64,000 nucleotides of DNA, from assembly GCF_044324785.1 (NCBI RefSeq), contig NZ_CP172127.1; one strand, 5' to 3'. This document shows, piece by piece, positions 56,904 to 64,000 of the stretch. The first letter of the stretch is position 1; the number at the start of each line of letters is the position of its first letter. The notes beneath the pieces are model-generated. The model did no database searches. It was not told the DNA's origin and was given only the letters and a program-made list of their open reading frames with translations. The stretch is from Escherichia coli. GTDB taxonomy: Bacteria > Pseudomonadota > Gammaproteobacteria > Enterobacterales > Enterobacteriaceae. The position numbers were made by a program, and so were the translations under genes.

Positions 56904-59225
56904 TTAACGTTTTTTGCCCATTGCTGCCGCCAACGCATCCATCATCGCGCTGTTACCGGCAGGCTGCGCTTCACGCCCACGCGGTTTGGCTGCCGGGCGG
57001 TTGTTTTGCGGGCGTTCATTACCGCCGCCGCGACGGGCGTTGGTTTCGCCAGGCTGCTCGTCCAGACGCATAGTCAGGGCGATACGTTTACGCTGAAGAT
57101 CGACTTCGAGCACTTTCACCTTCACAATGTCGCCCGCTTTCACCACGGTATGCGGATCTTCCACAAACTTGTTCGACAATGAAGAGATGTGAACCAGGCC
57201 GTCCTGATGCACGCCAATATCGACAAACGCGCCAAAGTTGGTGACGTTGGTCACCGCACCTTCGAGGATCATACCCGGTTGCAGGTCGTTCATTGTCTCG
57301 ACGCCATCGGCAAACTGAGCGGTTTTAAATTCCGGACGCGGATCGCGACCCGGTTTTTCCAGCTCTTTGATGATGTCAGTTACCGTCGGTACACCGAATT
57401 TTTCATCAGTAAAGTCAGACGCTTTCAGGTTACGCAGCTCGCTGCTGTTACCCATCAGATCTTTCAGTGCCTGCTGTGTTGCTGCCAGAATGCGTTCCAC
57501 CACCGGATAGGCTTCCGGGTGAACGGTAGAGGCGTCCAGCGGGTTATCACCGTGGTTAATGCGCAGGAAGCCCGCGCACTGCTCGAAGGCTTTCGGCCCC
57601 AGACGGCTCACTTTTAACAGTTGCTGACGGTTCTGGAACTGACCGTTCTCATCGCGCCAGGCCACGATGTTTTGCGCCATCATGCGCGTCAGGCCCGCCA
57701 CGCGGGTTAACAGCGGAACAGAAGCGGTGTTGAGATCAACACCGACGGCGTTTACGCAGTCTTCTACTACTGCGTCCAGTTTGCGGGCCAGTTGCGTCTG
57801 GCTGACGTCATGCTGATACTGACCTACGCCGATAGATTTCGGATCGATTTTCACCAGCTCCGCCAGCGGATCCTGCAAACGGCGGGCGATAGACACCGCG
57901 CCACGCAGCGAAACGTCGAGATCCGGGAACTCCTGCGCTGCCAGCTCGGAAGCCGAGTAAACCGACGCGCCAGCTTCACTGACGATCACTTTCTGCGCGG
58001 TCACTTTCGGGAACTGCTTCTGCACGTCGAGATAGAAACGCTCAGTTTCGCGGGAAGCTGTACCGTTGCCGATCGCCACCAGTTCAACGTTATGCTTTTC
58101 ACACAGGGCAGCAACGGTCATCGCTGCTTTTGCGGCTTGTCCGGTGTGCGGGTAAATGGTATCGGTCGCCACCAGTTTGCCAGTTGCATCGACCACCGCT
58201 ACTTTTACCCCGGTACGCAGACCCGGATCGAGGCCCATCGTTGCACGCAGTCCGGCTGGGGCCGCCATCAGCAGATCGTGCAGGTTACGGGCAAAGACGT
58301 TGATTGCTTCATCTTCCGCGCGTTCGCGCACGGTGCCCATCAGTTCGGTTTCCAGATGCATCAGCACCTTGATGCGCCACGTCCAGCTCACCACGCCTTT
58401 GCGCCAGCTATCCGCCGGGGCATTGTTCAGGCGCAGGCCGAGATGATCCATAATGATTTGCTCGCAATAGCTCTCTTTTGGCGGCTCATCGAACTGCGGA
58501 TCGGCATTCAGCGAAAGCTGAAGTACGCCTTCGTTACGACCACGGAACATCGCCAGCGCGCGGTGAGAAGGCACCGTTGACAGCGGTTCGTGATGATCGA
58601 AATAGTCGCGGAATTTCGCCCCTTCCTCTTCTTTACCACTCACCACCGTAGAAACTAAATGCGCGTTCTTCCACAGATAATCACGTACTTTTGCCAGCAG
58701 CGCGGCATCTTCGGCAAACCGTTCCATCAGGATATAGCGCGCGCCGTCCAGCGCGGCTTTGGTATCTGCCACGCCTTTATCGGCATCAATATATTGTGCA
58801 GCGGCGACTTCTGGCGTGTGTGACGGATCGCTCCACAGCAGGTCAGCCAACGGCTCAAGCCCTGCTTCAATGGCGATTTGCCCGCGGGTGCGGCGTTTAG
58901 GTTTGTAGGGCAGGTAGAGGTCTTCGAGTTCGGTTTTGCTTAGTGTGGCGTTGATGGCATTCGCCAGCTCGTCAGTGAGTTTGCCTTGCTCGGAAATGGA
59001 CTTGAGGATCGCCTGACGTCTCTCTTCCAGCTCGCGCAGATAGCTCAGACGCGTTTCCAGATTACGCAGCTGCGTGTCATCCAGACCGCCGGTGATTTCC
59101 TTACGATAACGTGCGATAAACGGCACGGTATTCCCTTCGTCAAGCAGGCGAACGGCAGCGTCAACCTGTTCCGGGCGCGCCTGAATTTCACCCGCAATAA
59201 TGCGGCAGAACGAATCATTCATCAT
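56904..59225 (-). CDS. tex: transcription accessory protein Tex (S1 domain)
   Basis: 773 aa, YqgF/HhH/S1 architecture; known as yhgF in K-12. Confidence 0.9.
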
Positions 59226-59321
59226 GGTTTGAGTTCATCTTTTCGGATCAAAAATCAGGGGATAGTTATACGGACTGGCTGGCAAAAATGCCAGCCATCG
59301 GCAGGAGGTTAAGACTCTTCC

Positions 59322-59798
59322 TTACGGTTTCACGTACTCGATAGCATTAACATACCAGCTCGCTTCCCCGGCAGGGGTATTGACCACCGCCAAATCGCCC
59401 ACCTCTTTTTTCAGCAATGCGCGAGCCATCGGGGAATCGATAGAGATGTAATCTTTACGGCCAAAAATTTCATCGTAGCCGACAATACGGAAACGGTGAG
59501 TCACGCCATCGTCGTTTTCAATCTCCACCCACGCGCCAAAAAAGACTTTGCCTTCCTGCTGCGGGGAGTAATCGACGATTTTGAGATTTTCCATGCATTT
59601 AGTGAGATAGCGCACGCGACGGTCGATTTCACGCAGGCGCTTTTTATTATACTGATAGTCAGCATTTTCGCTGCGGTCGCCCAGACTTGCGGCCCAGGTC
59701 ACCTTTTTTGTGACCTCCGGGCGTTCTTCACGCCAGAGATAATTTAGCTCTTGTTTGAGTTTTTCATACCCTTCCCGGGTAACCAGGGGCGTTTTCAT
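59322..59798 (-). CDS. greB: transcript cleavage factor GreB
   Basis: 158 aa from MKTPLVTREGYEKLKQEL. Confidence 0.92.
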   Translation of the reverse strand: MKTPLVTREGYEKLKQELNYLWREERPEVTKKVTWAASLGDRSENADYQYNKKRLREIDRRVRYLTKCMENLKIVDYSPQQEGKVFFGAWVEIENDDGVTHRFRIVGYDEIFGRKDYISIDSPMARALLKKEVGDLAVVNTPAGEASWYVNAIEYVKP

Positions 59799-60025
59799 CT
59801 CGTTGATTCCCTTTGTCTGTTTGATAATGCGCACATTGGGTATAACGTGATCATATCAACAGAATCAATAATGTTTCGCCGAATAAATTGTATACTTAAG
59901 CTGCTGTTTAATATGCTTTGTAACAATTTAGGCTGAAATTCATACCAGATTTAGCTGGTGACGAACGTGAGCTTTTTTAAGAATACACGCTTACAAATTG
60001 TTGCGAACCTTTGGGAGTACAAACA

Positions 60026-62094
<2,069 letters not shown>

Positions 62095-62097
62095 ATA

Positions 62098-62127
62098 AAA
62101 CGGGAGGCGAAGGTGCCTCCCGTTTTA
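62098..62127. terminator. bidirectional terminator after envZ, overlapping antitoxin stop
   Basis: cgggaggc-gaaggt-gcctcccg followed by tttt. Confidence 0.7.
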
Positions 62128-62421
62128 GATTGTTTTCAATTGATTGATAATGAAAGGATTCGCTTGCAAAAGCAGGAGCAATTTTCGGGGTGCTCCGGTA
62201 GGTTGACGGCGTTTGGTTTCCCAGCTTTTGACCAGGTCATAACTTACCCCTACGGCGACAGCAAAATCTTGCTGACGTAAACCCGTTGCTTCACGGATCG
62301 CTTTTACATCGATCTCGCTATAAGTATGGACGTGCTCTGGTTCAGGCGTTTCTTCACCCTTTTCGATGCGTACCATTTCTTCTGCGCTGGCAAGAAGATC
62401 AGCAAATAATTCGTCTTTCAT
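62125..62421 (-). CDS. HTH (XRE-type) antitoxin, HigA-like
   Basis: 98 aa, helix-turn-helix LRQQDFAVAVGVSYDLVKSWE, downstream of toxin. Confidence 0.7.
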   Translation of the reverse strand: MKDELFADLLASAEEMVRIEKGEETPEPEHVHTYSEIDVKAIREATGLRQQDFAVAVGVSYDLVKSWETKRRQPTGAPRKLLLLLQANPFIINQLKTI

Positions 62422-62479
62422 CTGTTTTCAATGCCTCCGTTGGCATTTCGGCCATGGTGGAATTTGTGGAGCTTCAACA

Positions 62480-62797
62480 TTAAAGCAGCTTCTCGGACAA
62501 TAGTTTCAATGCCTTTCTTTGTTCTTCTGTTAAATCATCCTGTTCATTTTTAGGATAAATCAACGCCAGATAAATTCGGCCATTGCGTGTTACGTTGTAA
62601 TAAATTATCCGAATGCCACCCCGTTTCCCCATTCCAGAACGGTTCCAGCGAATTTTTCTAAAACTGCCTGTGCCTGCGATAATGTCACCGGCAGTGGGAT
62701 CTTGAATGAGTAGTTCCTGAAAAGCCCGGAACTCATCATCAGGTAACAATAACTGGCGGCGTTTGCTAAATCCTTGTAGTTCAATAAACGTGAACAT
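62480..62797 (-). CDS. RelE/ParE-superfamily toxin, HigB-like
   Basis: 105 aa basic protein ...GIRIIYYNVTRNGRIYLALIYPKNEQ; toxin-first arrangement. Confidence 0.65.
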   Translation of the reverse strand: MFTFIELQGFSKRRQLLLPDDEFRAFQELLIQDPTAGDIIAGTGSFRKIRWNRSGMGKRGGIRIIYYNVTRNGRIYLALIYPKNEQDDLTEEQRKALKLLSEKLL

Positions 62798-62829
62798 AAT
62801 GCATCCTGCGGTCTATTGATAATTATAAG

Positions 62830-62842
62830 TGTACCGTGTACA
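62830..62842. promoter_or_regulatory. inverted repeat TGTAC-N3-GTACA in TA promoter (candidate autoregulatory operator)
   Basis: read directly, 33-45 bp upstream of toxin start. Confidence 0.4.
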
Positions 62843-62863
62843 TATTGGTAGCTAATTAGATAT

Positions 62864-62894
62864 AAAAAAACCCCTTATCCGTTTGGATAAGGGG
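62864..62894 (-). terminator. pckA rho-independent terminator
   Basis: ccccttatcc-gttt-ggataagggg with 7-T run on minus strand. Confidence 0.75.
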
Positions 62895-62913
62895 GCAATG
62901 AGATTTCAGCTGA

Positions 62914-64000
62914 TTACAGCTTCGGACCAGCCGCTACCAGCGCGGCACCCGCTGGGGTGTCGGTGTATTTATCGAAGTTGTCGATAAACAGTTTTGCCAG
63001 CGTTTCAGCTTTTTCCTGCCACTGTTCCGGAGAAGCGTAGGTGTTACGCGGATCGAGGATCCTGGTGTCTACGCCCGGCAGTTCGGTTGGGATCGCCAGG
63101 TTAAACATCGGCAGAGTGAAGGTTTCTGCGTTATCCAGCGAACCGTTGAGGATGGCGTCGATAATGGCGCGGGTATCTTTAATGGAGATACGTTTGCCAG
63201 TGCCGTTCCAGCCGGTGTTAACCAGATACGCCTGCGCGCCTGCCGCCTGCATACGTTTCACCAGCACTTCTGCGTACTGCGTCGGGTGCAGCGACAGGAA
63301 TGCCGCGCCGAAGCAGGCGGAGAAGGTTGGCGTCGGTTCGGTGATGCCGCGCTCTGTACCAGCCAGTTTGGCGGTGAAGCCAGAGAGGAAGTGGTACTGG
63401 GTTTGATCGGCAGTCAGACGAGAAACCGGCGGCAGCACACCAAAGGCGTCTGCGGTCAGGAAGATAACTTTAGTTGCGTGGCCCGCTTTGGAAACCGGCT
63501 TAACAATGTTATCGATGTGATAGATCGGATAAGAAACGCGGGTGTTCTCGGTTTTTGAACCATCATCAAAGTCGATAGTGCCATCTTCACGCACGGTGAC
63601 GTTTTCCAGCAGCGCATCGCGACGGATAGCGTTGTAGATTTCAGGTTCCGCTTCTTTCGACAGCTTGATAGTTTTTGCGTAGCAGCCGCCTTCGAAGTTA
63701 AACACGCCGTCATCGTCCCAGCCGTGCTCGTCATCGCCAATCAGGCGACGTTTCGGGTCGGTGGAAAGGGTGGTTTTACCGGTGCCGGAAAGGCCGAAGA
63801 ACACCGCAACATCGCCTTTCTCACCAACGTTGGCGGAGCAGTGCATAGAAGCGATACCTTTCAGCGGCAGCAGGTAGTTCATCATTGAGAACATCCCTTT
63901 CTTCATTTCGCCGCCGTACCAGGTGCCGCCAATCAGCTGCATGCGCTCGGTCAGGTTAAACGCCACGAAGTTTTCGGAATTCAGACCCTGTTCTTTCCAC
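62914..64000 (-). CDS. pckA: phosphoenolpyruvate carboxykinase (ATP), 3' part (5' end beyond window)
   Basis: C-terminal region with [10 protein letters not shown]-loop; ORF runs to window edge. Confidence 0.92.

Follow-up and report, generated by a model that had tools for sequence, protein, structure and literature searches.

The closest described relative of the two genes treated here is the HigB2/HigA2 toxin-antitoxin (TA) pair of Vibrio cholerae (VCA0468/0469; PDB 5JA8, 5JAA, 5J9I, 8A0X), a toxin-first operon located in the superintegron. Alanine substitution of R51, R64, Y82 and K84 in its toxin, VcHigB2, strongly lowers the activity in an in vitro translation assay, and the peptide of residues 3–22 of its antitoxin, VcHigA2, neutralises the toxin by itself (PMC5416850). 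The footprinted operator of VcHigA2, TGTACGC-N5-GCGTACA, lies over the core promoter (PMC11006873). The Pfam family PF06296 ('PF_RelE', with HigB2-named members) is characterised by the toxin-first order and by ribosome-dependent mRNA degradation (PMC11980606). We analysed a pair of genes found between envZ and pckA in a stretch of 64,000 nucleotides of the Escherichia coli contig NZ_CP172127.1 (assembly GCF_044324785.1). This whole stretch is called the window below, and all coordinates refer to it. Homology, fold, catalytic residues, gene order, a conserved palindrome, purifying selection and the distribution among genomes were all observed directly, and they indicate that the pair is very probably a chromosomal type II TA operon of the V. 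cholerae HigB2/HigA2 family.

Other described systems differ from the pair to various degrees. HigBA of the Yersinia ruckeri plasmid pYR4 is experimentally toxic, is neutralised by its HigA and stabilises the plasmid (PMC11429247). It belongs to the same family, is also toxin-first and its toxin is 57% identical to the window toxin, but it is a plasmid addiction module, whereas the pair in the window is chromosomal and has no replicon to stabilise. The HigB/HigA systems of Rts1 and of E. coli K-12 (ygjN/ygjM) share with the pair the toxin-first order, a RelE-superfamily ribosome-dependent mRNase and a helix-turn-helix (HTH) XRE antitoxin (PMC11980606). Their toxins, however, belong to Pfam PF05015 and PF09907, respectively, and not to PF06296. 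Unlike HigA2, the Rts1 antitoxin leaves the active site uncovered and makes no comparable use of an N-terminal disordered segment (PMC5416850). Salmonella SehA/SehB is an enterobacterial, chromosomal, toxin-first pair known as 'HigB-like', and its HTH antitoxin represses the operon. In contrast to the toxin in the window, SehA is devoid of a RelE-type active site; it inhibits RNase III and works through an additional helix at the C-terminus. SehB has about 143 aa against the 98 aa of the window antitoxin. SehA/SehB was considered as a closer analogue and rejected on the grounds of its different residues, the size of its antitoxin, the missing RelE-type active site and its different lineage. 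The Acinetobacter baumannii protein known as 'HigB2Ab' is a GP49-domain toxin from a different family despite its name, and it was not used as evidence.

Two genes in the envZ–pckA gap

In the window, envZ ends at 62094 (stop codon at 62092–62094) and the stop codon of pckA occupies 62914–62916. The open reading frame (ORF) listing and the sequence thus define a gap of 819 bp, 62095–62913. The equivalent gap in K-12 MG1655 is 75 bp long and the pair is missing there. A first-pass annotation, made from the letters of the window, had mentioned a short separation in K-12 and had described about 0.8 kb with a minus-strand 105-aa ORF followed by a 98-aa ORF 58 bp downstream. This description is correct, the spacing being exactly 58 bp, except that the segment was said to start at 62098, 3 bp inside the gap. 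The exact borders of the variable segment are the stop codon of pckA and the T-run of the envZ terminator, and inside them the difference between the alleles is complete: 44 bp in K-12 vs 788 bp in the window. The two genes are the following:

62480–62797, minus strand: toxin gene, higB2-like, PF06296, 105 aa (assigned by PDB HigB-2, Pfam, structural model and catalytic residues)
62125–62421, minus strand: antitoxin gene, higA2-like, annotated nadS, 98 aa (assigned by NCBIfam NadS, PDB HigA-2, Pfam HTH and fold)

On comparative grounds both ORFs are real genes and not chance ORFs, because their N-termini and lengths are kept in about 25 other species and the ratio of nonsynonymous to synonymous substitution rates (dN/dS) is 0.01–0.13 for both genes wherever dS could be estimated. 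The toxin-first order was found in 27/27 related loci. RefSeq annotates the genes as 'type II toxin-antitoxin system RelE/ParE family toxin' and 'nadS'; the origin of the name 'NadS' was not traced in the literature. A tblastn search revealed no paralogue of either protein in the window, and no second DNA-level copy was present in any E. coli genome searched. Positions 58000–64000 gave no Rfam match at E ≤ 0.1.

A phmmer search of the PDB sequences matched the toxin to V. cholerae HigB-2 with an E value of 1.3e-23 and 49% identity over 98 ungapped residues. This was the sole sequence match of the toxin among solved structures, and no ParE sequence was matched in the same search. In the Pfam scan, residues 44–104 matched RelE PF06296 (E = 1e-5, 26.2 bits) and this model only, with no match to PF05015 (Rts1 HigB) or PF09907 (K-12 HigB). 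The toxin also matched phrog_5869 with E = 1e-33. An AlphaFold model built on 21 homologues reached a predicted local distance difference test score (pLDDT) of 89.5, with the element order E-H-H-E-E-E-H (E, strand; H, helix) and a sole low-confidence stretch, the loop at residues 52–62. The model displays a RelE-like fold in which a helix forms the C-terminus and a basic loop joins strands 2 and 3. When it was used in a fold search, the top 11 PDB matches were all VcHigB2, with E values down to 9e-12 and template modelling scores (TM) of 0.75–0.85, and ParE came next (8c24 and 7r5a, E 4e-3 to 2e-2, TM 0.43–0.53). Structures of the Rts1-type or K-12-type HigB appeared among neither the sequence nor the fold matches. 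The predicted catalytic residues R50, R63, Y81 and K83 correspond to R51, R64, Y82 and K84 of VcHigB2 and are invariant in 21/21 aligned sequences, VcHigB2 included. The toxin shares with VcHigB2, in addition to the fold, the IIYY strand and the basic loop rich in glycine and lysine.

The antitoxin matched the NCBIfam model NadS (NF041265) with 76.8 bits over residues 5–96 of 98, the curated cutoff being 60. It also matched V. cholerae HigA-2 in the PDB (E = 5e-5, 29% identity), and its residues 39–76 matched Pfam HTH_31 and HTH_3. In the model of the antitoxin, pLDDT was 68–78 at residues 1–40 and 90–95 at residues 41–90. Its best fold matches were VcHigA2 structures, 5jaa and 5j9i, and the C-terminal domain compared with 5j9i gave a TMt of 0.84 and a root mean square deviation of 1.7 Å. 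The N-terminus, MKDELFADLLASAEEMVRIEKGE, includes an LFA-L motif and aligns with the VcHigA2 3–22 peptide. Judging from these alignments and the model, residues ~1–22 are the predicted toxin-neutralising segment and residues ~39–97 the putative HTH-XRE domain for DNA binding and dimerisation, an organisation like that of VcHigA2, with its N-terminal neutralising segment and C-terminal HTH dimer domain. The profile searches and fold matches therefore agree with the earlier identification of a RelE/ParE-superfamily toxin and an XRE-HTH antitoxin. The label 'HigBA-like' that came with it fits the gene order and the V. cholerae HigBA2 prototype; it does not extend to the Rts1 or K-12 HigB families, since the families found here were PF06296 and NadS instead.

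Putative promoter, palindrome and terminators

Beyond the two genes, the gap includes the following features, in the order in which the pair would be transcribed and ending with the neighbouring terminator:

62845–62850, minus strand: weak −35 position TACCAA (from the sequence)
62830–62842, minus strand: putative operator palindrome TGTACACGGTACA, TGTAC-N3-GTACA, between −35 and −10 (from uniqueness and conservation)
62822–62827, minus strand: −10 TATAAT, consensus, of the putative promoter (from the sequence and the upstream alignment)
62804–62807, minus strand: Shine-Dalgarno sequence of the toxin gene, AGGA, 6 nt before the ATG
62422–62479, minus strand: 58-bp toxin-antitoxin spacer with the antitoxin Shine-Dalgarno sequence GGAGG (from the sequence)
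62096–62127, not assigned to one strand: bidirectional intrinsic terminator, a perfect stem of 13 bp flanked by an A-run and a T-run (from a hairpin and repeat scan)
62864–62894, minus strand: intrinsic terminator of pckA with a stem of 10 bp, a loop of 4 nt and T7, confined to the occupied allele

The 130 nt located 5′ of the toxin gene were aligned for the window, for E. coli Nissle 1917 and for 26 loci of other species. The palindrome is conserved nearly throughout this alignment and abuts the −10. One or two copies of the palindrome were found 40–85 nt upstream of the toxin ATG in 26/30 loci, whatever the genomic context. The four loci that miss it are the empty K-12 site, the Nissle deletion allele, E. 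coli 36C_1, which has an IS3 insertion, and a Pseudomonas remnant. An equivalent of the toxin Shine-Dalgarno sequence, CAGGA or CAGGGA, was kept in all related loci. The core GTAC-N3-GTAC was observed once in the 64-kb window vs 0.18 expected occurrences, and in the related loci this core was located almost solely upstream of the toxin gene, with one stray match in ~190 kb. The palindrome is likely to be the operator of the pair. The perfect −10 and the alignment across species point to the putative promoter of the pair. As in V. cholerae, a palindrome with TGTAC outer half-sites would lie over the core promoter.

The number of palindromes depends on the site. Copies of the pair in other genomic contexts have two palindromes 30–31 bp apart, i.e., about three helical turns, which bracket a TTGA −35. 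This two-operator arrangement is present in most of the enterobacterial relatives outside the envZ–pckA site, whereas V. cholerae has one operator. At the envZ–pckA site (E. coli, E. albertii, Citrobacter and Kluyvera) the palindrome is single, the −35 is weak and the −10 fits the consensus fully or nearly so. The envZ–pckA lineage has the promoter-proximal palindrome only, and the pckA terminator stands where the distal one would be.

The spacer between the genes varies among relatives from a 4-nt overlap to 85 nt, and its sequence shows no conservation. A hairpin in the spacer (AATGCC...GGCATT) that could sequester the ribosome-binding site of the antitoxin gene was considered and rejected: its fold energy is that of the average shuffled sequence (z = 0.0) and the spacer is not conserved.

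The 30 bp between envZ and the antitoxin gene consist of the bidirectional terminator and nothing else. The terminator is common to the convergent envZ (plus strand) and antitoxin (minus strand) genes, and its hairpin is found in both alleles, including that of K-12. The envZ stop codon is within the A-run. The T-run spans 62123–62126, and the antitoxin gene ends with a minus-strand TAA at 62125–62127; two of the three bases of this stop codon are therefore inside the T-run, where the first-pass annotation had placed it. In E. coli the antitoxin stop is thus fused directly to the envZ terminator; in contrast, two Kluyvera loci have ~100 bp between the antitoxin gene and envZ, with a GC-rich palindromic element similar to repetitive extragenic palindromic (REP) sequences, GCCCGGCC...GCCGGGAC, and a different terminator. 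On the other side of the pair, pck of K-12 lacks a separate terminator and relies on the envZ hairpin. A hairpin homologous to the pckA terminator of the window is located at the same position in Citrobacter and Kluyvera.

These features are compatible with a simple working model. One promoter, with a perfect −10 and a weak −35, would transcribe both genes, and transcription would end at the hairpin common with envZ. The antitoxin would dimerise through its C-terminal HTH domain, bind TGTAC-N3-GTACA between −35 and −10 and repress the operon, and its N-terminal segment would fold onto the toxin and keep it inactive. Upon depletion of the antitoxin, the toxin would enter the ribosomal A site and cut the mRNA being translated by means of R50, R63, Y81 and K83, leading to the arrest of translation and growth. 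Toxicity, mRNA cleavage, neutralisation, DNA binding and lability of the antitoxin are the properties that the characterised homologues would lead one to expect.

Distribution, toxin decay and age

The full segment was found in 1328/5426 complete E. coli genomes (24.5%), always on the chromosome, in a single copy and at the envZ–pckA site, and the K-12-type 75-bp gap was found in 4031/5426. The presence of the pair is variable among E. coli strains, and its RefSeq names are those of a type II TA toxin and nadS; it is neither universal nor annotated as something else. E. albertii, two species of Citrobacter and two of Kluyvera have the pair at the envZ–pckA site too. Distant relatives are found on plasmids (900 PLSDB records, nearly all with less than 60% identity) and a few in phages. 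PLSDB lists one E. coli chromosome of 4.8 Mb, NZ_OL790696.1, among its plasmids. The toxin homologue in the records CAKLQH020000045.1 and CAKLQF020000035.1 of 'Acinetobacter phage MD-2021a' bears the label 'transcription elongation factor GreB'.

The toxin protein, WP_000493756.1, is identical among divergent E. coli strains with intact alleles. When the window allele was compared with four other intact E. coli alleles, the toxin coding sequence (CDS) differed at 0–2/318 nt (0–0.63%), the antitoxin gene at 1–2.7% and the flanking envZ and pckA at 1.6–3.6% of the positions. The synonymous diversity of the E. coli toxin gene is unusually low, and no explanation for it was found.

The toxin gene has decayed several times. 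In Nissle 1917 it has a nonsense mutation, E22*, together with D21K; the antitoxin gene is intact, and the exact 71-mer with the nonsense mutation is present in 107 complete genomes. A 7-bp deletion of the Nissle type, which removes one half-site of the operator, is found in 104–108 genomes and is coupled to E22*. In E. coli 36C_1_fosA3 an IS3-family element interrupts the toxin gene within its 5′ end, so that the toxin CDS is truncated, and nadS is intact. In Kluyvera sichuanensis, at the same envZ–pckA site, the toxin is deleted beyond its first 17 codons and the antitoxin ORF is intact. Frameshifts or truncations of the toxin only were found in Photorhabdus bodei, Enterobacteriaceae bacterium B14, Photobacterium ganghwense and Phytobacter ursingii. 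The antitoxin ORF was intact in every case of toxin decay found, and the antitoxin is also the more conserved protein across species, with 84–94% identity vs 69–83% for the toxin. Decay of the toxin before the antitoxin is the order expected for an addictive pair.

The first-pass annotation referred to the pair as 'inserted' between envZ and pckA, a term that is adequate relative to K-12 only. Taken literally, it would mean that a mobile cassette was recently acquired by this strain and landed in the gap, and the absence of the pair from K-12 and from 4031/5426 genomes, as well as the existence of relatives that are common on plasmids and present in phages, could be understood in this way. The 1328 carriers are nonetheless always single-copy and chromosomal at one and the same site, and among E. 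coli carriers the divergence of the segment (0–2.1%) rises with that of the flanks (0.1–3.6%). Moreover, the copies at this site in E. albertii, Citrobacter and Kluyvera share derived promoter features and a homologous pckA terminator; for Citrobacter and Kluyvera the shared promoter features are the single operator and the CGCAGGA ribosome-binding region. The E. albertii copy is 98–100% identical to the window while the flanking pckA is 93.9% identical, which can be cited in favour of a recent cassette; it also makes a certain amount of interspecies exchange probable. Direct or inverted repeats, the marks of transposition or site-specific insertion, were not found at the flanks, and the K-12-specific 44 bp have no similarity to the occupied allele that would represent a deletion scar (score 16 vs shuffle mean 17.5). 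Since the K-12 gap includes no remnant, the direction of the event is not readable from the junctions. A recent acquisition is, all this considered, very improbable. The occupation of the same site in other genera, the divergence that tracks the flanks and the lack of repeats or remnants favour instead an old presence/absence polymorphism of the gap, polymorphic or repeatedly lost, and they are evidence for a site that would have been occupied since before the split of Escherichia, Citrobacter and Kluyvera. The dS values against the Citrobacter and Kluyvera copies are saturated in these genes of about 100 codons and are not decisive for dating. At the population level, the module is best regarded as an old, vertically co-inherited and dispensable resident of the gap, which most E. 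coli lost or never had.

The sequence of E. albertii NBRC 107761 has an unusual organisation downstream of the TA pair, with the last ~80 envZ codons only, an internal pckA fragment, a second pckA 3′ end and unrelated ORFs. This arrangement must be the scar of a rearrangement or else an artefact of the assembly.

Function of the pair

The name given to the toxin by RefSeq, 'RelE/ParE family toxin', is compatible with both an mRNA endonuclease and a gyrase poison. The idea that the protein is a ParE-like gyrase poison can draw on the presence of ParE among the weaker fold matches (8c24 and 7r5a) and on the basic fold that the RelE and ParE classes share (PMC11980606), but it deserves almost no credence: the HigB2 fold matches are about nine orders of magnitude better (TM 0.78–0.85 vs 0.43–0.53), the sequence match is to HigB2 only and the RelE-type R/R/Y/K set is conserved. 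A different proposal is that the module is mainly a transcription factor locus in which NadS has host targets and the 'toxin' is an attenuated or non-nucleolytic protein-binding partner. The HigB-like toxin SehA of Salmonella, which does not cut mRNA and inhibits RNase III, provides a precedent, although it has been described as lacking a canonical active site (PMC12817084), and the residues critical for SehA, Y53, D61, H88, Y91, K93, T95, Y97 and Y98, have no counterparts at those positions of the toxin in the window. The conservation of the antitoxin above the toxin, its intact state in all the lineages named above in which the toxin was lost, and the detection by PIRT-Seq of expression of a gene annotated nadS in K-12 BW25113 (PMC12350097) would also be understandable on this proposal. 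However, none of the four RelE-type catalytic residues varies among the aligned sequences, purifying selection on the toxin is strong and the operator motif is found within the 64 kb only at the module's own promoter. The chances that the locus is mainly one for a transcription factor are therefore slim. As for a dedicated role in phage defence, the PADLOC search matched the toxin to no defence family and the antitoxin to generic HTH models only, and such a role is neither supported nor excluded.

Several observations weigh against the assignment of the pair as a HigB2/HigA2-type TA operon. The match of the toxin to PF06296 is modest (26 bits) and partial, and no NCBIfam model matches this protein. 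A scan for consensus promoters made no call for the promoter of the pair, owing to the weak −35. Of the VcHigA2 base-contacting residues R68, E71, N72 and R77, which correspond to D62, K65, S66 and R71 in the antitoxin, 1/4 is kept. The half-sites of the palindrome are 6 bp closer to each other than those of V. cholerae (TGTAC-N3-GTACA vs TGTACGC-N5-GCGTACA), the distance between TGTAC motifs being N3 here vs N9 in V. cholerae. Because three of the four base-contacting residues and the half-site spacing differ, the exact DNA recognition is not transferable from V. cholerae. As far as can be judged from sequence comparison, the mode of regulation is transferable; the family is the same and the specificity differs. 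The genomic settings also differ, the V. cholerae pair being part of a superintegron and that of the window residing between two housekeeping genes. No experimental study of the E. coli envZ–pckA locus was found in the literature, whether by accession, by locus or among the surveys of E. coli TA systems. Finally, the repeated loss of the toxin while the antitoxin was kept shows that the toxin is dispensable and leaves room for a function of the antitoxin beyond neutralisation.

This last point deserves to be spelled out. A NadS-type antitoxin may have an independent role that persists after the loss of the toxin, as a host regulator or as a cross-neutraliser (anti-addiction factor) of HigB2 toxins encoded by plasmids or phages, and its location could couple it to the expression of ompR-envZ or pckA. 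We consider this proposal unlikely. If it were true, it would explain the intact and more conserved antitoxin in the lineages with a dead toxin, and the coupling to ompR-envZ or pckA would occur by convergent transcription, via the antitoxin stop codon in the envZ terminator and the dedicated pckA terminator.

The assignment to the HigB2/HigA2 family places the pair among systems already known in kind. It is real, and it is an ordinary module that the annotation pipelines name, from a family with solved structures and a known mechanism. The strain-variable 0.8-kb segment found beside the genes for osmoregulation is thus a standard HigB2/HigA2-type module, a result with little reach beyond housekeeping. 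The comparative definition of the enterobacterial NadS operator, TGTAC-N3-GTACA, single at envZ–pckA and double elsewhere, is modestly useful, and so are the count of carriers, the natural alleles with a dead toxin and the evidence for the age of the site. The locus constitutes a convenient natural series for the decay of a chromosomal TA module and for antitoxins that outlast their toxins.

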